64,000 nt of DNA from Dehalococcoidia bacterium (GTDB lineage: Bacteria; Chloroflexota; Dehalococcoidia; Lucifugimonadales; UBA2985): assembly GCA_965221925.1 (NCBI GenBank), contig OZ244924.1, forward strand, positions 328,989-392,988, in the 5' to 3' direction. The notes below the pieces were generated by a model. That model did no database searches. It was given only the letters and a program-made list of their open reading frames with translations, and was not told the DNA's origin. Position 1 is the stretch's first letter. The number at the start of each line of letters is the position of its first letter. A program made the position numbers and the translations under genes. Below are positions 17,882 to 63,735 of this stretch, piece by piece.

Positions 17882-17958
17882 GGGCGGTTAGCTCAGCTGG
17901 TTAGAGCGCTACCTCGACACGGTAGAGGTCAGTGGTTCGAGTCCACTACCGCCCACCA
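17882..17958 (+). tRNA. tRNA-Val (anticodon GAC)
   Basis: Acceptor GGGCGGT/ACCGCCC, D-arm GCTCAGCTGGTTAGAGC, anticodon arm CTACC-TCGACAC-GGTAG, T-arm AGTGG-TTCGAGT-CCACT, encoded CCA. Confidence 0.9.
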
Positions 17959-19116
17959 GAATGTACCGAACTGCGAACTCGGCCGTTCAGGGCGATCTCT
18001 GCGGCGTCGGCTCCCCCTATGGGAGAGTCCTCCGGCGTGGGTATGGAGTAGACGATGGCGGCCCTGCCGGGCTTGACCGCGACCTCCTTGACGAAAGAGT
18101 GGACGAAGGCCCTGGTCTCGGTAAGCTCGCTGGTCTTGAGGAACTCGCTCATGTCCTCGGCGAAGGTGGCGATGGTGTCGGCGCTGTCCAGGAACTGCCG
18201 CCGCTCTGCGAGCATCGCTCTCGCCTCCTGTGCGGCGACCTCCAGCTTCTCCTTGCGCTCCCGGTGCTCCCTGATGCGCTCGGAGGCGTCGGCCATCTCG
18301 ATGTCGGTGGTCTCGATGACCTGCCAAATGCGACCCAAGCGCCGCTTGACCTCCTCAAGCTCCTCCTCGATGGTCTGAAGCCGCTGGCGCTGCTCGTGGG
18401 CCACCCCGTCCATCTCCTCGTCCAGCAGCTTCACCAGGTCTCGGATGTTGGACTCGGTGAGGACGTTGGCCCGAATCTCGTCTACGATGAGCTTCTCGAA
18501 GGACTTGGCGTTGAGCCTGGGGGTCTTGCAGGTCCCGCTGCCCCGCTTGAGGAGGGAGTGGCAGACGTAGTAGGTGTACCTGCCGCTCTTGGCCTCGGCG
18601 GCGGTCATGGCCTTGCCGCAGGTCTCGCACTTGAGCAAACCGCTGAGCAGGTAGGGGCTGGAAGCGCGTCGGGGGTTCACCTTCTTGGGGGCGCGTGACC
18701 CCAGCAGCTTCTTGACCTTCCGGAACTCCCCCTTGGAGACGATGGCGGGGTGTGCGTTCTCGACGCGCACCGGCGGCGCGCCGTCCTTGGCGGTGGTTCC
18801 CCAGACCAGGGTGCCCGTGTAGGCTTCGTTGAGCAGCACGTTGTGGATGGTGGTCTTCAGCCACCTCTTGCCGTTGGTGGTGGGGATGCCCTCGGAGTTG
18901 AGGGGTCTTGGTCACGTCGAGGATGCTGCTGCCTTGGAGTGCCATATCGAAGATGCGCCGTACCACGGCGTCGGCGGGCGGGTCAAGCTCCAGCTTGGGG
19001 CGCTTCTTCGTCCCGTCCTGGACGTAGACCTTCCGGTAGCCGTAGGGGGCGAAGGTGGTGACCCAGAAGCCTCTGGAAGCGGCCTCCCGCATCCCTCTCG
19101 TGACCTCTTGGGCAAG
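17946..19116 (-). pseudogene. large serine recombinase, C-terminal ~390 codons (split by insertion, plus a 1-nt frameshift near 18900)
   Basis: Two frames join as ...SSILDVTKT / LNSEGIPTTNGKRW.... Recombinase domain (FAPYGYRK), zinc ribbon (CETCGKAM...YYVC) and coiled coil. The last 13 nt overlap tRNA-Val. The N-terminal domain lies at 37602-38022. Confidence 0.8.
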
Positions 19117-19126
19117 GATATCGGTT
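19107..19126. other. left junction of nested element (attL-like): ttgggcaAG|gatatcgg
   Basis: Homology to the split recombinase gene stops at 19116. Confidence 0.65.
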
Positions 19127-19158
19127 ATTCAATCGACACAAAAAGATCAGGTATACAT

Positions 19159-19254
19159 GGGCGGTTGGACTTGAAGCCAGTTGACAACGACGATTGCTCA
19201 CGAAGCCTGCGTGGTTCGAACCCCCATTACCGGGAGCGTACCGAACTGCGAACT
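19159..19254 (+). pseudogene. degenerate tRNA-Val-like relic plus 17-nt flank repeat (relic att region)
   Basis: Starts GGGCGGTT like tRNA-Val and contains GGTTCGAAC. It ends with GTACCGAACTGCGAACT (19238-19254), identical to 17963-17979 just 3' of the real tRNA-Val. The middle does not fold as a tRNA. Confidence 0.45.
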
Positions 19255-19292
19255 TGTTGCTGGGAGGTCTCCATCTGAGGACGGCGAGCTAT

Positions 19293-21245
19293 TCAGCGTA
19301 TCTTGCCTGTGGCGCAATGAGCACGGACAGGGCAGTCCCCGCACTTTGGGGCGCGAGCCGTACACGTCAACGCACCGAGGTCCAGTAGCGCCTGATTCCA
19401 TTCGGCGGTCGCGCCCTTGGGTCCAGCCAACTGGTGCAAGTAGAGCCGTTGGCGCCAAGGTCTAGAGGTCCCCCCCATCAACCTTCGTGCAATCCTCGTA
19501 GTGTTTGTGTCCATTAGGATACTGCGACGTCCAAAGGCAAAACAGAGCACGGCGGATGCAATGTAATCCCCCACACCTGGTATGGCTACCAACTCCTGCC
19601 AGTTATCGGGCACATCGCCATCCAACCTCTCCTGCACAAATGTTGCAGCAGAAGTGATGTTGTCAGAGCGCCAGCGAAGACCCAACGTGGACAGTAAGGG
19701 TTGCAGCGTTTTCGAGTTATCCAGGAATTCTTGAGGGGTCCGCCCCAAGGCGAGCAATTCTTCTCCGATCTTGGCCACCTGCGGTGCCCTTGTTCGGTGG
19801 AGGCACATCTCAACCAACAGATGTTGCCAGGGAGTCAGGGATGAACTCCTCCAGGGGAATTCCCGCCCACTGTGGTTGAACCACCTTGCCAAGGCATCTC
19901 GAAAGTGGCCGTCAGTTGTTTCATCGCTAGAGCCAGGATTCGCCAGACTCTCGCTGGCCGAGTGAGCGTTGAGCGTCCGCAAGAGGGACGAGGCAATGGC
20001 CGATGCCAGCATGGGAGGAACCGCATTTCCGATCTGCTGGAACCTGGTGGACGGAGGCCCAGCGAAGCGGAACCTGTCCGGAAAAGTCTGAATCCTGGCG
20101 GCTTCCCGAATGGAGAGAGTGCGGTGCTCGCGGGGATGAATGTACCAGTACCCATCCTTTGCGATGTGAGCCGTAATAGTCCTCGACAGATCATTGAATG
20201 AAAGCCTGAGGTACTTGTCGTCAAATATGTCTGACCTGTACCGCCTGAGACGTTCGGGGGTGTCCAGGTACGTGTCTCCAGGTTTCATGTGACTGTAAAT
20301 CTCAGCGTCGTCCGGGCGAACAGCTCTCGTAATGTGGTCACGGATCAAATAGGACTCCTTGCCCCTCAAACCCCTTCGCAACAGCCTGGCTAGTGTGGTT
20401 GTCGGCGGGCCATCGTACAGCAGGGCCTCCTCACGTGAATCCGCCTGAACGACGGGAAGGTCTCCTATGGCCTGGCCAACCGTTGGCCGCCTCCCCATGG
20501 GCTTAGGCCACTCAAACTGACCATTCCCTTTGATTCCGACCACAAAGAGCCGAGAGCGGTGCTGTGGAACTCGGTACTTCCACGCCTCCAGTACATCCAC
20601 GTGCACCCTGTATCCTCGATGCTTCAATTCATCGAGCAATGCGATTAGCAGTGCCCCACCCTGGGACTGGGTGAAATTCGGTACATTTTCGAAGAGAATT
20701 ATACTGGGCTCCAGTCGGTCAGCAATAGCAAAAAAGCTCTGCCAAAGGTCGGCCCTCTCGTCACGAGCTTGGCGGTGCCCCTTCCTCACTAGGTCGCCGA
20801 TCTTTGAGGCTCCGGCTATTGAGAAGGGCTGACAGGGAGGTCCGCCTGCTACTAGATCGACCTTGCCGATACCCCACTCGTTCAGTTGGCTGATGAATCC
20901 GTCGGGTTTGGAGAGGTCCCCCGTCCACGTGAGGCCCTGGATGTTGGCGGCATACGTCTCGGTTGCCACTCGGTCAGAGTCAGCTGCGGCGACTACAGAG
21001 AAACCTGAGTCCTCTAGACCAAGGCTCAGGCCGCCCGCTCCGCAGAACAGATCAACGGCCCAAGGGCGAGGACGGCCTTTCAACCACGCCCCAACCGAGT
21101 CAGGGTCAGTGGGGTCGGGAGAACTTGGGTGCGGATCGAGCGCTATCCGGGTCCCACGGCGAACTTTCACGCCGTAACGCGACTGTCCCTCGGCAGAGTC
21201 GAGAGGAATTCCCAATGCCTCGTCCACTTTGGAATGACCAACCAT
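19293..21245 (-). CDS. DNA (cytosine-5)-methyltransferase fused to a C-terminal HhH-GPD (EndoIII/MutY/Mig-like) glycosylase domain with 4Fe-4S motif
   Basis: C5-MTase motifs: DLFCGAGGLSLG (I), GGPPCQPFS (IV), ENVPNF (VI), QIGNAVPP (X). C-terminal half: GVGDYIASAVL hairpin, MDTN aspartate, and CTARAPKCGDCPVRAHC, which is C-x6-C-x2-C-x5-C. Confidence 0.85.
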   Translation of the reverse strand: MVGHSKVDEALGIPLDSAEGQSRYGVKVRRGTRIALDPHPSSPDPTDPDSVGAWLKGRPRPWAVDLFCGAGGLSLGLEDSGFSVVAAADSDRVATETYAANIQGLTWTGDLSKPDGFISQLNEWGIGKVDLVAGGPPCQPFSIAGASKIGDLVRKGHRQARDERADLWQSFFAIADRLEPSIILFENVPNFTQSQGGALLIALLDELKHRGYRVHVDVLEAWKYRVPQHRSRLFVVGIKGNGQFEWPKPMGRRPTVGQAIGDLPVVQADSREEALLYDGPPTTTLARLLRRGLRGKESYLIRDHITRAVRPDDAEIYSHMKPGDTYLDTPERLRRYRSDIFDDKYLRLSFNDLSRTITAHIAKDGYWYIHPREHRTLSIREAARIQTFPDRFRFAGPPSTRFQQIGNAVPPMLASAIASSLLRTLNAHSASESLANPGSSDETTDGHFRDALARWFNHSGREFPWRSSSLTPWQHLLVEMCLHRTRAPQVAKIGEELLALGRTPQEFLDNSKTLQPLLSTLGLRWRSDNITSAATFVQERLDGDVPDNWQELVAIPGVGDYIASAVLCFAFGRRSILMDTNTTRIARRLMGGTSRPWRQRLYLHQLAGPKGATAEWNQALLDLGALTCTARAPKCGDCPVRAHCATGKIR

Positions 21246-23293
21246 CAGTTGGACTCCACCGAGAAACCGAGTGCAGCCGCCCTGTCAAGAATCTCGACTG
21301 CCCGTTCGGCATCCTGGGGTTTGATGCTATTCCCCCTCTGCAAGGCTCTGCCAACCCGTACGGCGGTCTGCCGCTGGCTGGCATCGAGCGAGCCTGTTTC
21401 CACGCCCCAACTGGCGAGCATCGTCCAGCCCTCTGAGGTCACCTCAACCAACCTCTTTAGATTCCCCACATGGTCTGAGGAGAGGTTCGACATTGAGCGC
21501 TTCTGTTCCCTGCGGGTTGCTTCTACATTGAGCAGTTCGGTCGAAATGCGGTCGATGGGCACCCGAGAAGCAGAGTTGCGGACAGCATCCCAGCATGCTT
21601 CGGCCTTGCACCATTCGGTGATGTTACGAGCGGTTGGAGGGTTGGTGATGATCCGATGCACATCATGGGAGAGTTCCGCTATCACCTCCTGCAGATTCGG
21701 CGTTAGGGTCTGCTCCCTCCAAATCCTGTCTAGGTCGATTCTCTGACTCGTGGCATTCGAGAGCAGGGCGATCGTGTAAGTGACGATGTTGGCCCTGTAT
21801 CCACCAAGGTTCTGCCGCTGCACGATGCGCTCGGTCGTTCGGAACAGAATCGCCTTGGCCACCAACCGTTCGAAATGGGTTCGTTCGACCTCCATCTGGT
21901 CGTGTTCCCCAAGTCTAATCATGTAGTCCGAGAAGTTCTTCTGCGCCCCCCGGCTCACGACATGAGGCAACTGCCCCCAGGTGTTCTCAAACTTCGCAAG
22001 GTCGGTCTTTGTGAACCGCTGCCCTGTGGGATGTTCAGCCAAGAAGGCCCTGCGCCTGGCAGGTGTCGTCTGAGACGCCCTGGCGTCCTGATACTGCCCG
22101 CGAGCGCGCTCGTAGAACCATCTTGTTTGCCTCTGCGACCCACCTACCGGAGGGGCCCACATGGTTCTTGAGAGCTCTTCAAGGCGAACATGGAATGGAT
22201 CGTTTGCTGAGAAATCAGCCTCAGAGATGCGATTCTGCGAGTTGGCGTAACGTGAGACGTTTCTGACCAACTCGTCATGGACATCGCCAGCGTCCACCTC
22301 TATCAGCTTAGCTGCTACATAGATCTGAGAGAGGTCGGCACGTCCCCGGCTGGCAGCCAACAGCGAGGCCGTTGTCTGTCCACCATTCACTATCTGTAGA
22401 CCTTCCAGCCTCGCAACACCAACACCCTCTCCCGTATCAATCAGCTCCACCTCTTCGGCGGTTAGCGTAATCCCGTTGTTGTAGGCGAGGAACCTCTCAG
22501 GCTCTGTATTGATGGTGTCGCGGATACTGCGGTTCACCTTCCCACGAGCCTGGAGGAATGATCTGACGTTCGTCTCCAGCAACCGGGGCCCGTGATCCGC
22601 ATAGATACCGCGCAAGACCGCCCCCGGAATGAGCAGCAGGAATGCCCGATACCCATCCTGGGCATTGTCGGCTTGGAGGCATGGAAGCGGCTCCCCGTAG
22701 CGTTCCATCAAGTCAATCGAAATGGCATCTCGCCGACGGCCTGAGGTGCTCTCGCGATGAAGCCTGACGACATCCCACAGGGAGCAAGTGACAGCAATGT
22801 CCCCGAGGTAATAATCGTCTGGCACTCTCTCTACAGTGGTCCTGCCATCGGTGATCACACACAGCTTTGCCTTGGCCAGATTTGTTCTGGAGCCATGGAT
22901 GTGTGCCGCCATATCGAACACTGGGGACGATTCCTCCAGTTCTACGTATCTGCCGTCCAGGCACCATTCGAGGAAGGAGCGCAGCCTTCTGAAAGCGACT
23001 TCAACCCTCTGCCTCGTAACCGTCTCTGGTGGAGTTGAATTGGTGTGAATGCTGAGGAACAGCTCGACCCGCGCCTCATCCTCATCCACTGAGTATCCGC
23101 TGACCTCCATCCCACGCGCCCTGTGGTAACAGACCAGAGGATCCTCGAATTCGCCTGCCTCGGAGAGCAGGTCGAACACGGTCTGGGTGAACAGATCAGA
23201 GAGCATCATGTCCTGCTCAACAGACTCGGCCTGTGCGAGCACGTCTTGGCGCAGGTTCTCTGCGAATTCCTCAATTGAGTGCTGGGTGGTCAT
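21245..23293 (-). CDS. AIPR (abortive-infection phage-resistance) family protein
   Basis: 682 aa. The central block ETNVRSFLQARGKVNRSIRDTINTEPERFLAYNNGITLTAEEVE...IVNGGQTTASL matches the AIPR family as I recall it. Its stop overlaps the MTase start (TGATG). Confidence 0.7.
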   Translation of the reverse strand: MTTQHSIEEFAENLRQDVLAQAESVEQDMMLSDLFTQTVFDLLSEAGEFEDPLVCYHRARGMEVSGYSVDEDEARVELFLSIHTNSTPPETVTRQRVEVAFRRLRSFLEWCLDGRYVELEESSPVFDMAAHIHGSRTNLAKAKLCVITDGRTTVERVPDDYYLGDIAVTCSLWDVVRLHRESTSGRRRDAISIDLMERYGEPLPCLQADNAQDGYRAFLLLIPGAVLRGIYADHGPRLLETNVRSFLQARGKVNRSIRDTINTEPERFLAYNNGITLTAEEVELIDTGEGVGVARLEGLQIVNGGQTTASLLAASRGRADLSQIYVAAKLIEVDAGDVHDELVRNVSRYANSQNRISEADFSANDPFHVRLEELSRTMWAPPVGGSQRQTRWFYERARGQYQDARASQTTPARRRAFLAEHPTGQRFTKTDLAKFENTWGQLPHVVSRGAQKNFSDYMIRLGEHDQMEVERTHFERLVAKAILFRTTERIVQRQNLGGYRANIVTYTIALLSNATSQRIDLDRIWREQTLTPNLQEVIAELSHDVHRIITNPPTARNITEWCKAEACWDAVRNSASRVPIDRISTELLNVEATRREQKRSMSNLSSDHVGNLKRLVEVTSEGWTMLASWGVETGSLDASQRQTAVRVGRALQRGNSIKPQDAERAVEILDRAAALGFSVESN

Positions 23294-24315
23294 ACCAAAC
23301 CCTCAAGGAGTTTATGGGGCCGTTCCTCCGCCATTCGGAAGGAGCCACAAGAGGCCGTTGACACCAAGTACCGCACGTCACTTACTCCGGGCTGGAGTTC
23401 ACCAGACACGATTCTTGGGAACCCTTCGCCAACCCGGAATGCGTACAGGGACCGAAGGCTGTATCCGATTTCGGAGTACGTGCCTGAGTCATCGCTGAGA
23501 TAACCAGACAGGTCCAGTCTGTGATCCAACAGGTGCAAGCAGCCATTTGCCGAGGCCATTGAACGGACGGAGCCAACCAAGTCAGGCAGCGTCTCGCCAT
23601 GGCCCACTCTGCCATCCAGGGACAGTCCGAGGAGCAACAACGCAACATCGTCCGGAACCTCCAGCTGCCGTTCACTGGAGATCGCCAGACGATCCAGACT
23701 GGCCGCCGTGCTGGTCTTCACCTCAATGCACGTGGCCCCTAGGTGGAAGTCCTGGTCAGAACCCATTGGGCCTCGCCATCCATTCACGGCAGCAGTCATG
23801 CCCACTGCTGGCACGACGACTTCTCTGAGCACCCACAGTTCGCCCCACAATCCCTGTTGTGTCTCCTGGCTCAACCCTCGTGGTCCGAGTCTCCTGAGAA
23901 GCTGTTGCCAGTCTGAGAGCCGCGCAAGAAATCGCCTTAAGCCCTCCCCTTCATCCTCGGGTTGCTCAGCAGCTTCAACCAGATCCCGCACCAAGAGGTC
24001 AAAGATGTCCCGGTGTTCCGAGTCGATCAGGGACAGCACCACCTCAGCCTCGTTGTCTTCCGCCTCCCTGGGGAGGACGCGCACAGTCAATCCACGCGAG
24101 TCCGGAACCTCTGGCAGCCCCGATGCCGAGTTTGCCGCAATGCGGAGTATGAGCATGCGATTCCTAGTGGGAATCTCCAAACCGAGAAATACGTCTCGCC
24201 GTCCGGAAGGCAGCAACCGACGCTGCACCCTTCCGGGAACATCGGCGATGCGGGTGTCCGCCTCCAAGTGACTCCACACCTCTACTAGATTCAACTCTCC
24301 AACTCCTCCTGCCAA
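23290..24315 (-). CDS. PD-(D/E)XK motif protein
   Basis: 341 aa. GLWGELWVL...SDQDFHLGATCIEVKT is a D...E-x-K nuclease-type core. ATGA overlap with the AIPR gene. Confidence 0.6.
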   Translation of the reverse strand: MAGGVGELNLVEVWSHLEADTRIADVPGRVQRRLLPSGRRDVFLGLEIPTRNRMLILRIAANSASGLPEVPDSRGLTVRVLPREAEDNEAEVVLSLIDSEHRDIFDLLVRDLVEAAEQPEDEGEGLRRFLARLSDWQQLLRRLGPRGLSQETQQGLWGELWVLREVVVPAVGMTAAVNGWRGPMGSDQDFHLGATCIEVKTSTAASLDRLAISSERQLEVPDDVALLLLGLSLDGRVGHGETLPDLVGSVRSMASANGCLHLLDHRLDLSGYLSDDSGTYSEIGYSLRSLYAFRVGEGFPRIVSGELQPGVSDVRYLVSTASCGSFRMAEERPHKLLEGLV

Positions 24316-28611: not shown

Positions 28612-28632
28612 ATCTGCGTGTACCTGGTATTC

Positions 28633-29369: not shown

Positions 29370-29483
29370 GGTTTGCTCCTTCCGAGAGAGTCTTGGTGCT
29401 TGAATTATAGTACATACACAGAAATAGCTTCAATACCCCGTTGATAATAGGCAACAAAAAGGACCACCATACATAAATCTGTT

Positions 29484-29522
29484 GGGGGAGGGTCATCGTT
29501 AGGAATTCGATGACCCTCCCCC
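29484..29522 (-). terminator. strong hairpin (15-bp perfect stem, 9-nt loop) downstream of the triple-HTH gene
   Basis: GGGGGAGGGTCATCG-TTAGGAATT-CGATGACCCTCCCCC. An A/T-rich stretch follows on the minus strand. Confidence 0.6.
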
Positions 29523-29604
29523 ATGTGAGTGACGGCCCAGCGCCCCTCGCTGTCCGGCTCAGCCTCTCACTGCTTCTCAAGCCCACTTGCCCGCTAGGGG
29601 AGGA

Positions 29605-30537
29605 CTAGGCAGCACGCAGCTCAGGTAGCGTCAACATGGCGGAGTAGCCCCGCTCGACGACGTGCGTCACCGACACGCGGCCCGTGCCGTCGTACCCGGC
29701 GCGGTAGGCGAACTCCGCCTTCGCGCCCCAAGGCACCCGGCCGCCGACCCGGATGGCGCCGCCGCCGGACCTGGCGCCGCGCACCACCATCCCGCTCCGC
29801 TCGCCCTTCCGCCAACCCAGCACCTTCACCTCGGCGGGCATGACCCGCTCCTCCGACTGCGACCGCTGGAACAGGACCCCGTGCAGCCTCTTCAGAACGC
29901 CCGGCGACGGCTTGGACTTGCCGGACATGATCTGGGAAAGATAAGCGGAACTCAAACCGGCCCGCCGAGCAACTTCGTTCTGGCTGATGCCGTGAGTATT
30001 CATCCGGTCCCACACGGCTTGGCGATCAACGACCGCGCACTTCGCAGCGGCAACCTTCGCCGGAGCCTCCAACGCCGACTCCACCCGGGCCTGGACCTTC
30101 ACGCCCATGTTCCTGTAACCACGGGACACCTGCGTCATGTAGCCATAAGACACCCCTGCACGCTCGGCCAGATCCTGCATACTCATGCCCAGCTCACGAG
30201 CACGCTCCCGGATGTAGCTGCTCTCCCCGCTTACGACGCCGCCCTGTCGGTAGACGACTCCCTGTCCGGGAACATCTCCCAACAGCGCCGCAGCCTTTTC
30301 CCGCATCTTCGGCGTCCAGGGTTTACACCCCGTCGCAATCTGCGACAGGTGACTCGCAGACACACCCATCTTGGCCGCAAGCTCCTTCATCGTGATCCCG
30401 CGCCGCCTCGCCGCAGCCCGAAGCTGAGTCTCTGACCTGCCAGGGTTCGATCCGGGTTTCGCTGTCTCGGCTAGTATCTCCAGGGCCTGCGCCGTGCCTG
30501 ATGCGGGGACATGCCTGTCAATGCTCGTAGTCGTCAT
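29605..30537 (-). CDS. protein with three tandem XRE-type helix-turn-helix domains
   Basis: Start set at MTTTSIDRH (ATG 30537, AAGGAGGA SD). Three HTH units: ITMKELAAKMGVSASHLSQIATG, MSMQDLAERAGVSYGYMTQVSRG, ISQNEVARRAGLSSAYLSQIMSG. Confidence 0.75.
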   Translation of the reverse strand: MTTTSIDRHVPASGTAQALEILAETAKPGSNPGRSETQLRAAARRRGITMKELAAKMGVSASHLSQIATGCKPWTPKMREKAAALLGDVPGQGVVYRQGGVVSGESSYIRERARELGMSMQDLAERAGVSYGYMTQVSRGYRNMGVKVQARVESALEAPAKVAAAKCAVVDRQAVWDRMNTHGISQNEVARRAGLSSAYLSQIMSGKSKPSPGVLKRLHGVLFQRSQSEERVMPAEVKVLGWRKGERSGMVVRGARSGGGAIRVGGRVPWGAKAEFAYRAGYDGTGRVSVTHVVERGYSAMLTLPELRAA

Positions 30538-30838
30538 GTCGCTTTCCTCCTTGTAGATGGAAAGCGAGGCCGCCCCCGTTGGAGACGACCCCGCTCGATT
30601 CCGTGTCCCGATAGTCGGGGCCGTCTCGTTGTGTAGTGTTGTTGCCGTGGCGAATGGCTGTTGCGGATTCCCTACGGGAAGCCGTGTGCGGGCAAGGCCC
30701 GTCGTGAATTGGGCACAGCTCCTCCTGGGCAGTGAGAGTGAGATGGGTGAGGCGGGAGCAGACCCCGCAAGCAAGGGATCGAAGCGAGCAAGCTCCGCTG
30801 TGGTGAAGCGGTGTGGAAAGTAGGGAAGCGGTTGACCG

Positions 30839-31123
30839 CTACCAGGCGGGGCGGGTGGCCCGTGCAAGCAGCCGCGGAAAGGCGGTGCGTCGTTGCGGGT
30901 GGGTTGCAAACGCAGTCGCAACGACGCCATCGGGGAGGGTGACGAATGGCCACGCGTCGTGGAATGGGCAAACGCCCCGGCGAACCCGGCCCCTTCCCCT
31001 GAGACGCACGTCCGACGCCTCAACCGTGTCGCGCGACTGGTAGCGCGCCTTCAGCGCAAGGATGGCAATGGGAGCATGGGCTACGACCAGGACGCGCCTC
31101 CCCCCGACCCGGGTCGAAGGCAA
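30839..31123 (-). pseudogene. internally deleted primase remnant (N-terminal ~45 aa fused to C-terminal ~45 aa)
   Basis: ILALKARYQSRDTVEASDVRLRGRGRVRRGVCPFHD aligns with the N-terminus of the 55203-56267 primase. ...VTLPDGV...AFPRLLARATRPAW aligns with its C-terminus. Most of the CHC2 finger after CPFHD and the whole TOPRIM region are missing. Confidence 0.7.
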
Positions 31124-31597
31124 GCCTTTCCCAGGGGCCTCAGCCCCCGCAGGCTGCGCCGCGAGACGATGTTGCCGGGCCGCCAGCGCATCCCCAGGAC
31201 CGCCGCGACCTCAAGCGTCCCGCCGTCGTCGGTGGCCACCAGGGCGGCGGCCCGTCCTGTGCCCTGGCTGTAGACCACAGCCTCCTGGTCGCCGAACTGC
31301 CGCCGCACCAGGTCCGTCCACTCGGCGAAGGTCAAACCGAGCCTGGTGCGGCTCAGCCTTCGTTGTGTCCATGCCGGCGAGGACCGCCAGCGCACCGTCA
31401 ACGTCCCCCGCCTGCCTGAGCCGCCGCGCCTCGTGGACGCTCTTGGCCACGCTCGGTGTCTCCGTCGCCGGTGCCGTCTCCGGCTGCTCCGAGAACAGCG
31501 CCGCCATTACCCGGTCGACCAGTTCTTCGAGGCTGCGCCTGGGCCGCACCGCCGTCTCCATCGTCCGATTGCCAGTTGCCAATGTTGCCCTTGTCAT
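31081..31597 (-). pseudogene. frameshifted paralog of the 54739-55206 gene (unknown function)
   Basis: Two frames together (RPRRSLEELVDRVMAALF...HEARRLRQAGDVDGAL and ...FAEWTDLVRRQFGDQEAVVYSQGTG...LGMRWRPG) align with the intact copy. Confidence 0.65.
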
Positions 31598-31964
31598 CAC
31601 GACCTCCTTCGTGTTGTGTTGCCTTGTTGATTGCGCCCTTGTGGGCAAAGAAGAAGGGCCGCCCCCGGCTGGAGACGACCCTTGCGTGTTGGGATGGGTT
31701 TGAGCGGCTCGAAACCGTCAGCCTTTGAACCGCCCCACCGTGTACCGTCCCGTTACTTCCATTCCTGTGTCCGTGATTCGTCTATGCCGATGTGACCTCC
31801 TTTCCGTGCTCGATGCCGTTGATCTCCGTCATCCATGTGCCAGTGCCCACAACGCCCGCAGTCCGACGATGAGCCGAATGCTGGAGACGGAGCGGGGTTG
31901 AAGAAGGCGCAGTTCGGCCCAGGGGCAACTCAGGGAAATGGACTCAGGGGGAGTTGCGATGAAA

Positions 31965-32455
31965 TGTGGGAGAACCGACCGGCCTGCAGATCGACCACAG
32001 GACGGCCCGGTGAGAGATGCAGCGAGACCCGGGAGCTACGTCGGTAACGTCCTGGGATGCTGCGTCAGGGGGAAGCGGCCAGCCTACAACGCAATCGCAG
32101 ACCGGCGCGTGGTGAAGCTGCGGCCAGTTCCACAGGAACCATGCCGCAGACGTGAGGAACCGGCCAGTGTGCAGGGCGCACTCCGACCAGGGTGTCCGAG
32201 GGCCGAGGCGCAGAGACGCATCGCCCTGGGTGACCCGTCTTCCGAACCGGCATCGGAGGAGCAGTGCTCGACCCCTCGACCGGCTCACGCAGCGGGAAGG
32301 CGCTTATCCCTCGTGGAACGCCGTCGGGAGAGCAGGGCTCGATCCGTCAGGCCGCTCCGGGTCGGGGATGGACCCTCCAGGTTTCTAGGCACGAAACGCT
32401 GGAAAAAGCCAGAAACTGCGTCAATTATCGCCCGAACATCCGACCGAATGGAAGG
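31965..32455 (-). repeat. conserved non-coding blocks, left copy (inverted relative to 53408-53877)
   Basis: Manual alignment shows three blocks of about 80-110 nt that are nearly identical to the right copy, separated by a diverged ~150-nt segment. Confidence 0.8.
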
Positions 32456-32534
32456 CCCCGGACGGGCAAATCAGCCCCTACGCCCAAATTGCTCGCTCCG
32501 ACTTAGCTCCTATTTCGCAGCCAGCGGCCCGGGC

Positions 32535-33431
32535 CTACTTCCTCCACAGTCCGAAGGTGAGGACGCGCCGGAGCCACCGACGCAGCAGCGCCCGGTTGCG
32601 CTCCGCTCGCACCCGCTTGAGGTCCTGAGTCCGCTCCCAGACCTTATCCCGCCGGTCGAACTCGTCCCAGGGGAACGAGGCGGGGGGCAGCGTCAGCTCG
32701 TGCTCCCCAACGAGGGCGATCTCCATCTCCAACATTGGCTCCTGAACCTCCGTCCTGTCCAGCGTGGCGCCGGTCTTCAGGGTCTTGAGGAACTCGGCCC
32801 GCACCCTCCGCCACTCGACGATCATCGGCGCCGCTTCGCCGTACACCAGGTCTTCGTCGGGTTCGGCTTCCGGGGTCACCAGCTGGGGATACGTCCTTGG
32901 GCGAACGTACCTTCGCTTCGTCGGCTCAGTCTCTGCTCCGGTCGGAGAGGGCGTCTCGGACTCGCTCCTTCCCGCCTCCAGCCGCACCAGCCGCCGCTCC
33001 ACGTGCCGCATCGACCTTGCGTGCTCCTCCCTGAACGCCTTGACCTCTCCCACGACGGCTTCGAGGCCGCCGCGCAGCTCCCGCTCCAAAGCAGACACCC
33101 GCTCCACCAACGCATCGACTCGATCCCGCTGCTGGGCGGCAGCCGAGCCGCCCCCCAGCAGCAGGTGCCGCTCCAAAGCGTCGGCCATCCGGTCGGTCAA
33201 CCGGCCCGTCTCCTCGTGACGCACCAGGGTTCGGTAGTTGACGCCCAGCGCCGCCGCCGTCTGCACCTTGCCCTCAGCTTCGATCATGTCGCGCAGCAGC
33301 GCCAACAGCCGCATATGCCGCAGGCTGTCCAGACTCCGGCTCGATTCGGGGTAGAAATCCTGTTCACTCACGCCTTCGGCCTCCCCGATTGCACTTCTAC
33401 AACTTTCGTAGGGCGCACTGTCCACTCGCAC
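32535..33431 (-). CDS. coiled-coil/HTH-like protein, paralog of 52385-53329 (unknown function)
   Basis: Aligns with the right-arm copy (LGVNYRTLVRHEETGRLTDRMADALERHL vs LGVAYRTLVKAEESGELTGRMSDALERLL; both end RRVLT(F/L)(G/W)LWRK). The real start may be GTG 33372 (GGAGG SD). Confidence 0.6.
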   Translation of the reverse strand: MRVDSAPYESCRSAIGEAEGVSEQDFYPESSRSLDSLRHMRLLALLRDMIEAEGKVQTAAALGVNYRTLVRHEETGRLTDRMADALERHLLLGGGSAAAQQRDRVDALVERVSALERELRGGLEAVVGEVKAFREEHARSMRHVERRLVRLEAGRSESETPSPTGAETEPTKRRYVRPRTYPQLVTPEAEPDEDLVYGEAAPMIVEWRRVRAEFLKTLKTGATLDRTEVQEPMLEMEIALVGEHELTLPPASFPWDEFDRRDKVWERTQDLKRVRAERNRALLRRWLRRVLTFGLWRK

Positions 33432-33597
33432 CCGCTTTTCCCGATTGCACTTCTGCCACTTTCACAGGGGGCGTTGTCCAAATCCCGTGGAAGGAACCCC
33501 GGAGACAAAGTGCTCGCAGGCTACCTCCTGTAGGGGGGCGTTCCACGCCTACGCCAGCTTGCCCACTACCTCGATTACAACCCGTCCACCGGACTCA

Positions 33598-33632
33598 AAT
33601 CCCTGTACACGGGTATCACACCACAACCGGCC
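33598..33632 (+). repeat. 35-nt direct repeat, copy 1 (AATCCCTGTACACGGGTATCACACCACAACCGGCC)
   Basis: 33/35 identical to 34211-34245. One related copy lies in inverted orientation at about 52095-52130. Confidence 0.8.
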
Positions 33633-33656
33633 CTCCATTTATCAGGCCCTGCAAGG

Positions 33657-33806
33657 GGGGACTCTGCGCGAGCCCGGGCACGCCGGGAGATGACTCCGAC
33701 ACAGGGTCGTGGTGCCCGGGGACTCTGCGCGAGCCCGGGCACGCCTGAGTCATCTTGTAATGACGTGCTCATGTCGATGGGGACTCTGCGCGAGCCCGGG
33801 CACGCC
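33657..33806. CRISPR. CRISPR-like mini-array: 3 identical 28-bp repeats, 2 unique 33-bp spacers, no cas genes in the window
   Basis: GGGGACTCTGCGCGAGCCCGGGCACGCC at 33657, 33718 and 33779 (61-bp period). Spacers are gggagatgactccgacacagggtcgtggtgccc and tgagtcatcttgtaatgacgtgctcatgtcgat. The repeat is homologous to a single regulatory hairpin at the same position in the sister element, so a non-CRISPR origin is possible. Confidence 0.35.
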
Positions 33807-33899
33807 GAAAGGCCTCCCTCGCTCACCATTCCTAAGACGTTCCCGGCTTCCCAGACTCAATGGGAGGCATCACGAACCCACCTGCGAGGAGGCGAAGAC

Positions 33900-33977
33900 G
33901 TGGGAGTTCCATCGACCGCCCGGCGGATCCTTGGCAGAGTCGGCGGAAGGACCAGAAGGCTGATTCCCGTGGCCCCA
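33900..33977 (+). pseudogene. remnant of the first T4SS-operon gene (signal-peptide region only)
   Basis: GAGGAGG SD, then GTG and GVPSTARRILGRVGGRTRRLIPVA, which aligns with MGAKSTVRRTLGRARRLMPVA of 51326-51970. Homology then ends. Confidence 0.4.
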
Positions 33978-34029
33978 TGTCCTGTAGAGGGCTGTCCTAT
34001 AGGGAGTTGCACACCCCCGATTCCAGCCT

Positions 34030-34200
34030 CCACGTCCAATTGCTCGCTCCGATGTAGCCCCAACCTCCGACTTCCCTTTTTGCAACTGCGTCCCATTTTT
34101 CGGAATCAGCCCATTCACAAATTGCTCGCTAGGACGGCCCCGACTTCCCTCTTTTCTTGCCATTTTCAGGTTCAAAACAGCCCCCGACTTGTATTTCGGG
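34030..34200. repeat. iteron-like repeat cluster (AATTGCTCGCTCCGA ... CGACTT ... TGCAACTG units), left copy
   Basis: AATTGCTCGCTCCGA at 34038-34052, AATTGCTCGCT at 34120-34130, a further copy at 32487-32501, and related units in inverted orientation at 52140-52330. Confidence 0.65.
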
Positions 34201-34210
34201 AACTGACGCC

Positions 34211-34245
34211 AATCCCTGTACACGGGTATGACACCACATCCGGCC
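34211..34245 (+). repeat. 35-nt direct repeat, copy 2
   Basis: AATCCCTGTACACGGGTATGACACCACATCCGGCC, followed by the hairpin GGGAGGAC-GCGCGT-GTCCTCCC (34269-34290). Confidence 0.8.
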
Positions 34246-34393
34246 TATTTGCTCCCATGTCCTCAAAAGGGAGGACGCGCGTGTCCTCCCATATACGGCA
34301 TGGTGTCCCGCCCCACGACCCCTCAGACTCGGCGGCAGGCAAACCGGCGGTGACAGCCGGACGCGTGCTCACGCCCGCCCGGCGAAGAGAGAT

Positions 34394-34621
34394 ATGAAGG
34401 AAAAGAGCAGACAGAGCGGGCGACGGATGCCCGAAGAGGACGCCTCCGAGTTCGGGGTGGTCAGGGTCATCTCCAGGCCCGCCCCCGACGCGGAGGACCG
34501 GCTGCGCCGCCTCTTCACCCTGCTGCTCGAACACGCAGCCAGGGAGAGGCAGGCCGCGCCCGAGAAGGATTCCCTTCCAGGGGCGGAACTCACTGGCGAC
34601 GACATCGAGGCGGAAGCCTAA
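34394..34621 (+). CDS. small hypothetical protein
   Basis: 75 aa ORF whose stop overlaps the start of the next gene (TAATG). No recognisable domain. Confidence 0.45.
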   Translation: MKEKSRQSGRRMPEEDASEFGVVRVISRPAPDAEDRLRRLFTLLLEHAARERQAAPEKDSLPGAELTGDDIEAEA

Positions 34622-35844
34622 TGCAGCCGGAATCGTTCCCCACCGACGACAGCCTGGGCCGGAGTGTCCAACCCGCATCTGCGCCACTCTCGGCGAAGGA
34701 GGGCGCGTTCGGCGAGGAGAACGCTCCGTACGAGGCAGTCTTCGGGGACGTGTCGAAGATCATCGACGCGGCCAGGGGATCGGCAGTCCGCTCGGTGAAC
34801 GCCGCCATGACCGCCGCGTACTGGCTGATCGGACGCCGCATCGTCGAGTTCGAGCAGTCGGGCGAGGAGCGGGCCGAGTACGGAGCCGCGCTCATCGAGA
34901 GACTGGCGGAGGACTTGACCGGACGGTTCGACCGCGGCTTCTCCCGTCAGAACGTCCAGAACATGCGCCTGTTCTACCTCTCATACCCAATCGAGAAGAT
35001 TCGCCAGACACTGTCTGGCAAATTGCCTGCATCCCCTCGATGGCGGATTCGCCAGACGCCGTCTGGCATATCCGAAGCCGCTTCCATCGAGCTGGGCTTC
35101 GACGACCTTCTCGTGGCCTTTCCGCTGCCCTGGTCAGCCTACGTGCGGCTGCTGTCGGTCAGGAACGAGAGCGCCCGCGAATTCTACGAAGCCGAGGCGC
35201 TGAGAGGCGGATGGTCGGTCCGCCAGCTCGACCGGCAGATCGGCTCCCAGTTCTACGAGCGCACCGCCCTCTCCAAGAACAGGGCCTCCATGCTGACGAG
35301 CGGGCAGAGGGAGCGCCCCGAAGACATCGCACTCCCCGGCGAGCAGATCAAGGACCCCTTCGTCCTGGAGTTCCTCGACCTCAAGGACGAGTACTCCGAG
35401 AGCGACCTCGAGGAGGCGCTCATCCACCACCTGGAGACCTTCCTCCTAGAGTTGGGAGACGACTTCTGCTTCATCGGCAGGCAGAGGCGCCTGCGCGTCG
35501 GCCACCAGTGGTACCGGGTTGACCTGCTGTTCTTCCACCGCCGCCTCAGATGCCTCGTGGTCATCGACCTGAAGATCGGCAGCTTCACCCACACCGACGC
35601 CGGGCAGATGCACTTCTACCTGAACTATGCGCGGGAGCACTGGGTACGGGAGGGCGAGAACCCGCCCGTCGGACTGATCCTCTGCTCCGAGAAGGACGAG
35701 GTCCTCGCCCGGTATGCCCTTGAGGGGCTGTCGAACAACGTGATGGCCGGGGAGTACCGCATCACCCTGCCCGACGAGGAGATGCTGGCAGCCGAGCTCG
35801 ACCGGACGAGGCAGACGATGGAGCTGCGCGCACAAGCGCTTTGA
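34621..35844 (+). CDS. YhcG-family PDDEXK nuclease (DUF1016)
   Basis: N-terminal DUF1016 helical region (AAYWLIGRRIVEFEQSGEERAEYG...LPWSAYVRLLSV) and a C-terminal nuclease core (YRVDLLFFHRRLRCLVVIDLKIG). Confidence 0.75.
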   Translation: MQPESFPTDDSLGRSVQPASAPLSAKEGAFGEENAPYEAVFGDVSKIIDAARGSAVRSVNAAMTAAYWLIGRRIVEFEQSGEERAEYGAALIERLAEDLTGRFDRGFSRQNVQNMRLFYLSYPIEKIRQTLSGKLPASPRWRIRQTPSGISEAASIELGFDDLLVAFPLPWSAYVRLLSVRNESAREFYEAEALRGGWSVRQLDRQIGSQFYERTALSKNRASMLTSGQRERPEDIALPGEQIKDPFVLEFLDLKDEYSESDLEEALIHHLETFLLELGDDFCFIGRQRRLRVGHQWYRVDLLFFHRRLRCLVVIDLKIGSFTHTDAGQMHFYLNYAREHWVREGENPPVGLILCSEKDEVLARYALEGLSNNVMAGEYRITLPDEEMLAAELDRTRQTMELRAQAL

Positions 35845-35963
35845 CGCCCCCCTGTCCAACGGGGTAAAATGGTGGGTAGAAGTTGACCCGGCGGTGCGCT
35901 AACACCCCGGGCCGTGGCGCCACCTGTTAAAGCCAGGCGATGCGAATAGATTGTACTACTCGC

Positions 35964-36000
35964 AGACCCGCTCTCGACAGGAGGCGGGTCTTCTTCATTT
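35964..36000 (+). terminator. rho-independent-type terminator after the YhcG gene
   Basis: Stem AGACCCGC / GCGGGTCT (8 bp) with a 12-nt loop, followed by TCTTCATTT. Confidence 0.5.
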
Positions 36001-36024
36001 CAAGGGACACGAGAGGAGGCAGTC

Positions 36025-37638
36025 ATGGCGAAAACCGCCTATAGGAAGACGGAACCGAATCGAGCGGCCATCTACGCCCGCGTCTCGGACAAGAGCCAGG
36101 ACGCGGAGGACAAGACCTCCATCTCCGAGCAGATCTCCGACATGGAGACCCACTGCAAGCGCAGGGGGCTGACCATCGTCGCCCGCTACCAGGAGGTGGG
36201 CAGAGGATGGTCGAAGAAGCGCCCCGAGTTCCAGAGGATGCTGGCCGACGCCCGACAGGGACGCTTCGACACCATCGTCTGCTGGAAGTCCGACCGCCTC
36301 AGCAGGGGCATGTACCCCGCCGCCGCCCTCATGGAGGTCGTGGAGGCGCACCGCATCAACCTCCAAGCCGTCATGGACGCCATCGACATGAAGACCTTCG
36401 GTCTCATGGCCGCCGTCGGCAAGATAGAGTTGGACAACTTCCGGGAGCGCTCTTCGATGGGCAAGCGCGGCACGGCCAAGCAGGGCCGCATCCCCATCAG
36501 CAACGTCCCCTACGGCTACTGCATCGGAGAGGACGGCAGGCCGGAGGTCGTGGAAGCCGAGGCCGAGGTGGTGCGCCGCGTCTACAGGACGTACGTCCGC
36601 GATGGGAAGGGAGCGCCCGCCATCACCCGGCAGCTGAACGCCGACGGCGTGCCGTTGGCGAAGGAGGGCAAGCGGTGGTACGACGGTACGGTCCATCGCA
36701 TACTCAGCAACGAGACCTACAAGGGCACCTGGTGGTACGGCAAGGCCCGCTACGTCTCAACCGAGGAGGGAATCCAGGTCTACGAGCAGCCGGAGGACGA
36801 GTGGATAGCGGTCCCGTTCCCCCCTCTCGTGGATGAAGATACCTGGGAGCGAGCCAGGGTGCTCCGCAGGCAGCGCTGGACCAGAGCCAAGCGCAACACC
36901 AAGGTGTTCTACCTGTTGCAGCACATGATGAGGTGCTCGGAATGCGGGTTCCTCATGGGCGGATCGGCGAATACGAAGAAGGAAGTCAAGCGCAACGGCA
37001 AGCTCTACAAGTATGAGTTGGACCCTCCCCGCCGGTACTACAGGTGCTACGGCTATCAGCAGATGCGCCTACAGTGCCGGGCAAAGCCGATGATCCGGGC
37101 CGAGCGACTGGAGAGCCTCGTCTGGAACCAGGTCAAGAATGCCCTGGAGAATCCCGGCCTGATCGTCGCCGGCATTGAGGCCCTTAACGCCCAGGAAGAC
37201 GGCGGCGGACTGGCCGAGGAGATCGCCCTGGCGGAGCGCGACCTCCAGAAAGTCCAGATGGAGGAGGACCGCGCAATCAGGCTCTACGTGTCGGGGAAGA
37301 TCACCGAGGACCAGCTGGACCGTCAGCGCAGGTTCATCACGGAGCGGCTGGAGACGCTCCGGGCCAGGCTGGACGAGTACCGCTCTCAGCAGACGGCGTT
37401 GGCCGAGAAGCGCATCCTGATGGAGAACATCGTCACCTGGGCCGAGAAGATGGGCGACAGGCTGGACGACCTGTCCGACGACGGACGCCGCGAGGTGTTG
37501 GAGCTTCTTCTCGACGGGGTGACCATCGACCGCGACAACAACGTCGAGATCACGCTGGCTGTCCCCACGGAAGAATTTGTCTCGATTGAACCATCGGCAT
37601 CAGATTTTCGCTGTAGAATTCGTCCACGCTCTCGATGA
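36025..37638 (+). CDS. large serine recombinase (intact)
   Basis: N-terminal resolvase domain (AAIYARVSDKSQ...CWKSDRLSRG), recombinase domain (VPYGYCIGEDG), zinc ribbon (CSECGF...YYRCYGY) and coiled coil. The last ~12 codons cross the right junction of the nested element. Confidence 0.9.
   Translation: MAKTAYRKTEPNRAAIYARVSDKSQDAEDKTSISEQISDMETHCKRRGLTIVARYQEVGRGWSKKRPEFQRMLADARQGRFDTIVCWKSDRLSRGMYPAAALMEVVEAHRINLQAVMDAIDMKTFGLMAAVGKIELDNFRERSSMGKRGTAKQGRIPISNVPYGYCIGEDGRPEVVEAEAEVVRRVYRTYVRDGKGAPAITRQLNADGVPLAKEGKRWYDGTVHRILSNETYKGTWWYGKARYVSTEEGIQVYEQPEDEWIAVPFPPLVDEDTWERARVLRRQRWTRAKRNTKVFYLLQHMMRCSECGFLMGGSANTKKEVKRNGKLYKYELDPPRRYYRCYGYQQMRLQCRAKPMIRAERLESLVWNQVKNALENPGLIVAGIEALNAQEDGGGLAEEIALAERDLQKVQMEEDRAIRLYVSGKITEDQLDRQRRFITERLETLRARLDEYRSQQTALAEKRILMENIVTWAEKMGDRLDDLSDDGRREVLELLLDGVTIDRDNNVEITLAVPTEEFVSIEPSASDFRCRIRPRSR
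37592..37611. other. right junction of nested element (attR-like): cggcatcAG|attttcgc
   Basis: Homology to the split recombinase gene resumes at 37602. Confidence 0.65.
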
Positions 37639-38022
37639 TGGCCTCAAGGAGCTTGCCGGTGGGGGTGTCGTCGGCCTGCTCGGTGATGGAGACCACGCGG
37701 ACGCCCCTGCGCCTCAGCATGGACTTGAAGGCGACGGAGCGCTCCCGCTTGCGGGTGAAGCGGGAGAACTTCCAGACGAGGATCTCCTTGAAGGGGGACT
37801 CCGGCTTGGCGGCCTCATCCAGCATCTTTTGGAACTGGGGCCGGTCGGCGATGCGCCCGCTCTCGGCCTCGTCCACGTACTCGCGGGCGACCAGGTAGTC
37901 GTGCTTCTCGGCGTAGTCCCGGAGCGCCCGCAGCTGGGCGGCCACGGACAGGTCCACGTCCTGGCGGTCGCTGGAGACCCTGGGTAGAGGGCCACTGGCG
38001 TCAGATCAAATCGCTCGTTCAT
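37602..38022 (-). pseudogene. large serine recombinase, N-terminal resolvase domain (split from 17946-19116, plus a 1-nt frameshift near 37980)
   Basis: MNERFDLTPVALY / (frameshift) RVSSDRQDVDLSVAAQ...LLEAIIESVDEFYSENL. The catalytic-serine motif is present but out of frame with the start codon. Confidence 0.8.
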
Positions 38023-45612: not shown

Positions 45613-45628
45613 CGGTATAGTCCTTTCT

Positions 45629-63598: not shown

Positions 63599-63735
63599 TC
63601 CGCGCAAGCAAAAGTAGGTAGTGCCCTCAGCATCGGCAGCCCCAAGCGGGCTGGCGCGTTCCCTCCCTGCCCCGGTACTGTGTTGTACGACCCAGCCGCG
63701 GTAATAAGGAGTGGACGCAAGAAAGGAGATGCAAC

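Follow-up and report, generated by a model that had tools for sequence, protein, structure and literature searches.

Streptococcal IMEs with a serine recombinase have been described as nesting in conserved genes of conjugative elements, at the IME_SNF2, IME_PPI and Tn1549_traG sites (PMC7168690), and the LSR-bearing Tn6104/5/6 as residing inside Tn6103 of C. difficile (PMC3158075). The locus analyzed here, contained in a stretch of 64,000 nucleotides from a Dehalococcoidia bacterium (the window), resembles both in that a small serine-recombinase island with adaptive cargo is found in a conserved gene of a conjugative element by site-specific and recurrent insertion. In contrast to these systems, the target of the invading island is the integrase (LSR) gene of the host element itself, so that the insertion would remove the excision function of the host element. 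Furthermore, no relaxase domain was found in any ORF of the invader (Pfam, PHROGs, NCBIfam), the invader is related to its target, and the host phylum is Chloroflexota; the picture of islands nested in conjugative elements would thereby be extended from Firmicutes to Chloroflexota. It is highly probable (roughly 85%) that the island is an element moved by its LSR and inserted in the alpha-E segment of the LSR gene of tRNA-Val conjugative elements, disabling their excision.

The Tn5053/Tn402 'res hunters', too, are directed to the recombination locus of a different mobile element. They transpose via Tni proteins into res sites bound by resolvase. In contrast, the invader contains no TniA/B/Q genes and no transposase or Tni-type domains, and its target is a coding sequence on which an LSR acts. 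Gene-internal attB sites of phage and island LSRs, for example, in comM/Mg-chelatase and prolyl isomerase genes, with an enrichment of competence genes, were described by Durrant et al. (2022, PMC10083194). The invader LSR shares with these enzymes the domain architecture, the 2-nt core, the imperfect inverted attP arms and the conserved coding targets; recombinase genes as LSR targets were not mentioned in the main text of that paper according to a term search. A coding gene is also split precisely, in a manner that excision could reverse, by the gene-intervening LSR elements skin in sigK, SPbeta in spsM and gin in gerE (PMC5595907, PMC5025042). Unlike these, the invader interrupts a gene of a mobile element and not a host developmental pathway, and the interrupted gene has decayed. 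The ssrA genomic islands of Dehalococcoides (PMC3146451) come from the same bacterial class as the locus analyzed here. A serine recombinase inserts these islands into the 3' end of a gene for a tRNA-like RNA, comparable to the integration of the resident element at tRNA-Val. They parallel only the resident element's own integration and not the nested insertion.

The resident LSR gene is located on the minus strand in two halves (38022-37602 and 19116-17946), which join to 529 codons with the break after Leu141. The N-terminal fragment (37602-38022, codons 1-141) covers the catalytic domain through ...EFYSENL and terminates with ...LLEAIIESVDEFYSENL. The C-terminal fragment (17946-19116, codons 141/142-529 and the stop codon) opens with (L)AQEVTRGMREAASRGFWV, followed by the Recombinase domain, the Zn ribbon and long helices/coiled coil. 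In the joined protein, Pfam placed the Resolvase domain at residues 10-156, Recombinase at 190-279 and Zn_ribbon_recom at 296-355. More than 100 intact LSRs aligned with the protein end to end (86-91% identity, 100% coverage). The halves join without loss or duplication of a residue, and the nucleotide identity of the joined gene to single intact genes is 88-91% across the junction. EFYSENLAQEV, which spans the junction, was invariant in an alignment of nine sequences. As judged by these alignments, both fragments stem from one LSR gene and are colinear within it. The initial annotation had proposed one gene of about 530 codons split by about 18.5 kb, which agrees with the 529 codons and the 18,487 bp of the island, but it had missed two 1-nt frameshifts. 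Compared to the intact genes of loci L001 and L121, a G is missing at about position 37983 (codon 14) and an extra C is present at about 18903-18906; these two 1-nt indels were the only internal differences. The extra C falls in a run of C, whereas the missing G is not part of a homopolymer. Some of the frameshifts in the resident element could be consensus errors, the source being probably a long-read MAG. Relatives of the resident LSR in IMG/VR did not exceed 34% identity.

The insertion target had been assigned to the helix linking the catalytic and the recombinase domain. This is in accordance with its position in a conserved motif of alpha-E type, located where the Resolvase domain ends. 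The AF2 model of the homologue P0006, a resident-type LSR, weakly supports the assignment, as it contains a helix at residues 137-154 at low confidence (mean pLDDT of the catalytic domain 64.6, below 50 at residues 116-145).

The invader spans positions 19117-37603 and measures 18,487 bp including one copy of the crossover core. Its GC content is 0.56-0.66 compared to 0.61-0.73 in the flanking conjugative element, and Tandem Repeats Finder detected nothing within it. The core copies are located at 19115-19116 (left) and 37602-37603 (right) and read AG on the plus strand and CT on the minus strand. As already recognized in the initial annotation, this dinucleotide is the only identical sequence at the two junctions, which are free of long direct repeats; a core of only 2 nt was also observed at loci L054 and L059. 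The ATC/GAT dyad previously noticed around the core is real and extends to 21-bp arms. The left attP arm (19117-19137, GATATCGGTTATTCAATCGAC) is an imperfect inverted repeat of the right arm (37581-37601, CTCGATTGAACCATCGGCATC), with 15 of 21 positions symmetric in the reconstructed attP, and both arms are conserved across the invader LSR family. The right arm lies within the 3' end of the invader LSR gene (36025-37638, plus strand), which is intact and encodes 537 amino acids with Resolvase, Recombinase and Zn ribbon domains (Pfam). Its ORF crosses the junction, as had been reported, and its last 12 codons (DFRCRIRPRSR and the stop codon) lie beyond the crossover on the antisense strand of the resident gene. 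The invader LSR is distinct from the resident LSR (27% identity), and the residues R19, V20, S21, D22 and Q25 of its catalytic serine motif are invariant in 19 relatives. The uninterrupted gene, whose search had been recommended, was found at L001, where the intact LSR gene contains an empty attB with identity over 69 nt; similar empty attB sites are present at L021, L121 and L122. An uninterrupted, attP-like join of the left and right arms is located near the end of a 3-Mb contig at L010 and may represent a tandem copy or an assembly feature, and scans of JGI metagenome contigs and IMG/VR with the attP pattern yielded 0 matches and no circular junctions.

The preferred mechanism would start from a circular island whose LSR gene contains an attP at its 3' end, formed by the two 21-bp arms and the CT core. 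The invader LSR would recombine this attP with an attB in the ..EFYSENL|AQEV.. segment, for which the host gene appears to be the LSR gene of a widespread Dehalococcoidia family of conjugative elements integrating at tRNA-Val. The insertion would part the catalytic domain of the resident recombinase from its DNA-binding domains, leaving the conjugative element without excision or re-integration of its own. In the present locus, the resident element presumably decayed later, and its LSR, VirB4 and coupling-protein genes now carry frameshifts.

The same right junction, at the same codon (site A), was detected in 23 of 80 genome loci and 4 of 28 metagenome loci, and an independent left junction with the same core was found at L059. 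The site A junction is thus present in at least 27 other assemblies from several projects, and its recurrence in 27 independent loci excludes chance. In a neighbor-joining tree, the users of site A form one clade. Its sister clades use a site B in LSR genes (NEAYTGTL|VWG; L054 is a complete example with a CT core), an SNF2-like helicase gene, as known from the streptococcal IME_SNF2, or comM. Basal relatives of the site A clade sit at a comM-like motif, and its off-site members have a motif resembling GTAGAACTCG in common with the main site. The targeting of site A is, on sequence grounds, an inherited trait of the whole LSR clade. The LSR gene of L002 was also hit at about residue 81, which means that at least three positions in LSR genes are used by different lineages; some LSR genes were hit two or three times (L059, L002). 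Because the site recurs in at least 27 assemblies, a mobile-element lineage habitually targets, and probably immobilizes, another mobile element.

The locking of one mobile element by another had initially been called unusual. As a statement of rarity, this has to be restricted, because the insertion is habitual for the invader LSR clade and nested islands are known from Firmicutes (PMC7168690). However, an LSR gene as the habitual target of an LSR is not reported in those parts of the full-text literature covered by the search, and the integrase gene as a habitual target seems to be a new variant of nested islands. It amounts to a recurrent and heritable specificity of one mobile-element family for the integrase gene of another and would explain in concrete terms how conjugative elements become locked in place and subsequently decay. 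The natural sets of LSR, attP and attB (site A, site B, helicase sites, comM), whose specificities are related yet different, could serve studies on the evolution of target choice and the development of orthogonal integration tools.

The invader and its target element have common features beyond the insertion site. The backbone of the invader is collinear with the resident element at 51.9-58.3 kb. A conserved backbone ORF of 298 amino acids without family match (32535-33431, minus strand) is 40% identical to the resident ORF at 52385-53329, and a non-coding block (31949-32206, minus strand) with a conserved hairpin is 92.7% identical to resident positions 53640-53900. This shared block of approximately 260 nt is a candidate cis site such as oriT; its local hairpin shows some compensatory change, and the fold energy of the whole block was no better than that of shuffles (z = 0.44). 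The invader has the appearance of a reduced relative of the resident element's family. It is conceivable, albeit rather doubtful at present, that a clade of reduced satellites with defense cargo, derived from this Dehalococcoidia conjugative-element family, home to its integrase gene, immobilize the parent and keep the candidate oriT for the use of its transfer machinery. If true, this would represent an 'integrase-gene hunter' strategy in mobile-element conflict that drives the fossilization of conjugative elements in these genomes.

A tentative alternative, which deserves serious consideration even if it is not favored, is that the LSR gene is used solely as a conserved, horizontally spreading target dispensable to the host, with immobilization as a side effect of no selective role. 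The attB region is almost invariant at the DNA level across genomes, as expected for such a landing site. The comM gene targeted by the basal relatives is a classic, conserved LSR site (PMC10083194), and the helicase gene used by sister clades is another conserved gene of mobile-element type. However, different lineages use at least three positions of the same LSR genes (site A, site B and, in L002, about residue 81), and the invader has the backbone and the nearly identical non-coding block in common with the target family; both observations speak more for a specific relationship than for a neutral landing site. This alternative and the preferred reading have the same mechanism and differ in evolutionary meaning, on which sequence data cannot separate them.

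The resident element is located at a tRNA-Val(GAC) (17882-17958, plus strand; ARAGORN, Rfam), whose 3' end overlaps the last codons and the stop codon of the resident LSR gene and which marks the junction between the conjugative element and the chromosome. The location at tRNA-Val proposed in the initial annotation is further supported by an intact relative, whose LSR P0054 likewise adjoins a tRNA-Val(CAC) in L121 and L122. The remainder of the element (38019-64000) is encoded on the minus strand and comprises genes for an RHH protein (38019-38243), Replic_Relax proteins (38696-40159 and 41386-43056), DUF3800 (about 40607-41728), the coupling protein (43046-45612, two frameshifts), VirB4/TraC (45609-47858, one frameshift at about 46040), pilins (47878-48210 and 49917-50192), TrbL (50339-51322), a primase (55203-56267), Rad52 (56478-57410) and TSCPD (57789-58208), and a group II intron from 61826 onward. 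With VirB4, a coupling protein, a relaxase-type protein (Replic_Relax), pilins and TrbL, the element is conjugative. The same RHH and Replic_Relax genes come next at other loci with a disrupted LSR gene. Because the window ends inside the group II intron, the right end of the resident element is located past it, and a displaced 3' fragment of tRNA-Val was not found within 19-64 kb (up to 2 mismatches, pieces of at least 12 nt).

We strongly infer the loss of resident excision, because the C-terminal DNA-binding domains are cut off from the catalytic domain and the gene contains two frameshifts. A second recombinase could be encoded toward the right end of the resident element, beyond the limits of the window; a related LSR elsewhere in the genome could act in trans, and the resident element may already have been defective when the island inserted.

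Instead of a lock, the insertion might be a mobility switch similar to skin, SPbeta and gin, with conditional precise excision restoring the resident LSR gene. Excision by an LSR is precise and would re-create EFYSENLAQEV without any change. The N-terminal frame of 141 codons is open in most other site A loci (about 5 of 27 fragments, including that of the window, are clearly broken), which fits a recent insertion or a restorable gene. Nevertheless, we regard the switch as unlikely. In the window, the two frameshifts would remain in the LSR gene, in contrast to the functional gene restored in skin and SPbeta, and since the VirB4 and coupling-protein genes are broken as well, restoration would yield no working element. 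No candidate directionality factor was identified, the public contigs scanned contained no circular junction, and the repeated hits in some LSR genes do not favor a switch either. That the locus is an assembly chimera or combines fragments of different LSR paralogues has a negligible probability, as nothing but the probable metagenome-assembly origin speaks for it, whereas the halves join exactly, match single intact genes across the junction and have the same junction in 27 independent assemblies.

The cargo of the invader includes a complete Mza defense system with adjacent MzaA-E genes (19293-28611, minus strand; Pfam, PADLOC). Its single operon encodes MzaA, a C5-methylase with a C-terminal HhH/FeS region (19293-21245), MzaE/AIPR (21245-23293), MzaD/DUF4420 (23290-24315), MzaC/Z1 (24291-27038) and MzaB/HATPase_c_3 (27031-28611); PADLOC called MzaB, C, D and E plus the C5-methylase in the same operon. 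The Mza genes as well as rpoB and rpoC are intact, whereas the resident LSR, coupling-protein and VirB4 genes are frameshifted. For genome annotation, split LSR pseudogenes can flag the borders of nested defense-carrying islands. Type IV secretion genes are absent from the invader. A prophage was considered as well and dropped, because the analysis detected neither phage genes nor, in IMG/VR, relatives of the invader LSR. The ORFs of 298, 235, 106, 75 and 100 amino acids received no names from PHROGs or NCBIfam. The conserved backbone also includes a regulator of 472 amino acids with several HTH domains (29605-31023, minus strand). A PIN-domain toxin (28633-29070; Pfam) and its upstream partner of 100 amino acids (29067-29369) form a pair on the minus strand that is kept in L002 and L013. 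The ORF of 75 amino acids and a DUF1016/YhcG PD-(D/E)XK nuclease (together 34394-35844, plus strand; PADLOC PDC-S02) form a module that is also located upstream of the LSR gene in the intact conjugative element of L001.

Six-frame translation of the window assigned the two minus-strand fragments on either side of the invading island to a single large serine recombinase (LSR) gene of the resident element. The N-terminal fragment (38022-37602) encodes MNERFDLTPVALY..RVSSDRQ...LLEAIIESVDEFYSENL and the C-terminal fragment (19116-17946) encodes (L)AQEVTRGMREAASRGFWV..., with the stop at 17946. When the island (19117-37603; 18,487 bp) is removed, the join reads GAA AAT CTT GCC CAA (ENLAQ), neither dropping nor repeating a residue, and the surrounding sequence EFYSENLAQEV is invariant in an alignment of nine sequences. 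A database search with the joined LSR returned more than 100 intact proteins (86-91% identity, 100% coverage), and Pfam domains were detected for Resolvase (residues 10-156), Recombinase (190-279), and Zn_ribbon_recom (296-355). At the DNA level, the joined gene is 91% and 88% identical to the intact genes of the comparison loci L001 and L121, respectively, from which it differs in internal length at only two positions, each by 1 nt. A G is missing at approximately 37983 (codon 14, TAC[G]CCAGG) and an extra C is present at approximately 18903-18906; with both single-base corrections, the LSR comprises 529 amino acids. The gapless join and the full-length match to intact homologues bear out the initial annotation, which had described 37602-38022 and 17946-19116 as colinear halves of one gene; it was accurate apart from these two frameshifts, which it overlooked.

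The junctions on the minus strand read GAAAAT-CT-GATGCC on the N-terminal side and GATATC-CT-TGCCCAA on the C-terminal side. As claimed before, the dinucleotide CT (AG on the plus strand, at 37602-37603 and 19115-19116) is the sole sequence common to both. The reconstructed attP in minus orientation is GTCGATTGAATAACCGATATC-CT-GATGCCGATGGTTCAATCGAG, and the dyad previously seen around its core was recovered as inverted arms of 21 bp each, which match at 15 of 21 positions and perfectly at the outermost nine (TCGATTGAA). The right arm falls within the 3'-terminal part of the gene for the invader LSR (36025-37638), so that this ORF spans the crossover point, also in agreement with the initial annotation. 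In the integrated state, the last 12 codons of the invader LSR come from resident-gene sequence read in antisense; a circular form would give the protein a 23-residue tail instead. The empty attB was found as a 69-nt stretch in the intact LSR gene of L001 (10381-10449), identical to the reconstructed sequence, and near variants are present in L021, L121, and L122. In the comparison locus L010, right arm, AG, and left arm are uninterrupted (6642-6690, ..CCACCGGCATC-AG-GATATCGGTTATCCAATCAAC). Since this junction lies close to a contig end (approximately 5 kb away, on a contig of 3.07 Mb), it may represent a tandem copy, or else a circular form caught by the assembler, and is only suggestive as evidence for attP. 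Scans of JGI metagenome contigs and IMG/VR for the exact attP pattern gave no match.

The split point after Leu141 (site A) is used repeatedly. Among invader LSR homologues with identities as low as approximately 69%, a C-terminal ..SDSRCRTRPRSR followed by the stop is very frequent; this tail corresponds to the conserved IIESVDEFYSEN codons read in antisense. An antisense LSR N-terminal fragment ending at residue 141 directly follows the LSR in 23 of the 80 genome loci examined (all from Dehalococcoidia or Chloroflexota MAGs) and in 4 of the 28 metagenome loci. The junction form ..ATC-AG|ATTCTCGCTGTAGAACTCGTC.. is common to the site-A loci, and an independent left junction, CCTGGGCG-AG-GATATCGGTTATCCAATCGAC, was identified in L059. 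Genes for RHH and Replic_Relax proteins come after the interrupted LSR genes of other loci as they do in the window; therefore, the same element family is the target. In a neighbor-joining tree of the invader LSR relatives, the site-A users form a single clade. In the few members of this clade located elsewhere, the flanks contain a motif resembling GTAGAACTCG whose spacing from the core is unchanged, a pattern to be expected if a sequence-specific LSR had used pseudo-sites. Most of the N-terminal fragments at the other site-A loci still have an open frame, and approximately 5 of the 27 examined are clearly broken, including the one in the window. Many of the insertions may therefore be recent or potentially reversible.

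Other positions in LSR genes are occupied as well. A separate LSR clade uses site B at approximately residue 246 (NEAYTGTL|VWG), and the complete site-B element of L054 (10.6 kb) also has a CT core. In L059 (11571-11910), a single resident-type LSR gene carries inserts at both sites, with the right end of an element at site B and the left end of another at site A, so that only codons 142-246 remain between them. L002 supplies a third site within the resident LSR gene, at approximately residue 81 (..|ILVWKFSRFTR); here, a further LSR gene in opposite orientation (11760-13565) adjoins the already interrupted resident LSR. Other LSR clades (groups C, D, and F; loci L025-L078) use three positions in a gene encoding an SNF2-like helicase (658 amino acids), with insertions in both orientations around ..WDETD|YSVY... 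The helicase gene is also split at residues ~75 and ~229 in L030 and L035, with inserts of 2-3 kb. Basal relatives of the invader LSR are found at a comM-type motif (MNPCPCGY). The gene comM is a classic LSR target and is named in the main text of Durrant et al. (2022; PMC10083194) as a common one together with prolyl isomerase; a term search of that main text gave no mention of recombinase genes as LSR targets.

The mechanism is ordinary LSR integration, and nested elements of this type are known. Serine-recombinase mobilizable elements reside in the conserved conjugative-element genes SNF2, PPI, and traG in Streptococcus suis (PMC7168690), LSR-bearing elements are nested in Tn6103 of C. difficile (PMC3158075), and serine-recombinase islands occupy the tmRNA gene in Dehalococcoides (PMC3146451). 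The targeting of one element by another, which the initial annotation considered unusual, can in this general form be called so only with qualification, and the site itself recurs in 27 other loci; however, a full-text literature search turned up no case in which an LSR gene was described as being habitually targeted by another LSR element. What seems new is that the habitual target is the integrase gene of the host element itself and that invader and target are related.

The split leaves the catalytic domain on one side and the Recombinase, Zn-ribbon, and coiled-coil domains on the other. The latter three bind the att sites in LSRs. Because they are severed from the catalytic domain, loss of resident LSR function can safely be inferred, and the two frameshifts come in addition; to this extent, the proposed disabling of resident excision is supported. 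Compared with the L059 proteins, the coupling-protein gene is in three frames (two frameshifts, at approximately 43701 and 44500) and VirB4 in two (one frameshift, at approximately 46040). Other resident genes match their homologues in a single frame, and rpoB (1312 amino acids), rpoC (1383 amino acids), the Mza phage-defence genes, and the invader LSR are all intact. This clustering of frameshifts in mobility genes suggests that an immobilized element has genuinely decayed. The sequence probably stems from a long-read MAG, and some frameshifts in this GC-rich region may be consensus errors; unless they are such errors, the resident transfer genes look like pseudogenes.

By its gene content, the resident element is conjugative. 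It encodes an RHH protein immediately upstream of the LSR, two Replic_Relax proteins, a DUF3800 protein, the coupling protein (43046-45612), VirB4/TraC (45609-47858), two T4SS pilins, TrbL/VirB6, a DnaG-type primase, Rad52/22, and TSCPD. A group II intron (61826-64000) contains an RT/maturase/HNH ORF (61826-63598) and Rfam Intron_gpII domains V/VI (63946-64000); the latter are cut by the window end, which places the element's right-hand end outside the window. L001 has a related intron ORF in the corresponding position. A repeat of 32 nt that includes a hairpin (..GAGCCTGCCCCGTAC..GATACGGGG) is present in four copies (41188, 51793, 56379, and 56457). At its stop, the LSR gene overlaps with the 3' end of tRNA-Val(GAC), an arrangement that the intact relative P0054 repeats with tRNA-Val(CAC). 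The resident-family LSRs (P0001-P0120) are 86-91% identical across many genomes, and their C-terminal tails diverge just past ..SGG, at the point where the reading frame runs into the 3' end of the tRNA (window 17946-17960; L121 11578-11654). The crossover of the family is therefore placed at the tRNA acceptor end, and its members may use different tRNA genes.

The invader carries a complete Mza system, comprising MzaB, MzaC, MzaD, MzaE, and a C5-cytosine methylase fused to an HhH/FeS region. The methylase (19293-21245; 650 amino acids) has a C-terminal helix-hairpin-helix with an endonuclease-III-type FeS motif, and this part may act as a built-in T:G mismatch glycosylase. Further genes encode a PIN toxin pair, a multi-HTH regulator, a 75-amino-acid ORF with a DUF1016 nuclease, and several unnamed backbone ORFs; a search of the invader ORFs revealed none for secretion, a relaxase, or phage functions, and IMG/VR contained no relatives of its LSR. 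The invader and resident LSRs are merely 27% identical. The invader backbone (30.5-34.2 kb) is homologous to and collinear with resident 51.9-58.3 kb, and a non-coding block of approximately 260 nt is shared at 92.7% identity (31949-32206 and 53640-53900), including 60 identical nt, whereas the adjacent proteins are just ~40% identical. Within the block, no codon periodicity is seen in the mismatches; other parts of the alignment contain indels. Copies of the block also occur in L001 (in its intact element), L002, L003, and L018, other invaders included. The block contains a hairpin (CTGCGGC..GCCGCAG) with some compensatory changes in the inner stem. From these features, it is a candidate common cis site that may be an oriT or have a regulatory role. 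Short direct repeats lie upstream of a 235-amino-acid ORF and overlap its start (33384-33807, 34205-34245). Three 29-nt copies are spaced by 61 nt (33657, 33718, and 33779), and 41-nt repeats occur as two copies at 33384 and 33440 and as another pair at 33592 and 34205; the cluster may represent iterons or operator sites. A homologue of a 133-amino-acid resident-family ORF was found at 31126-31507 in two frames (31507-31355 and 31329-31126), which points to a frameshift or indel in this invader backbone gene.
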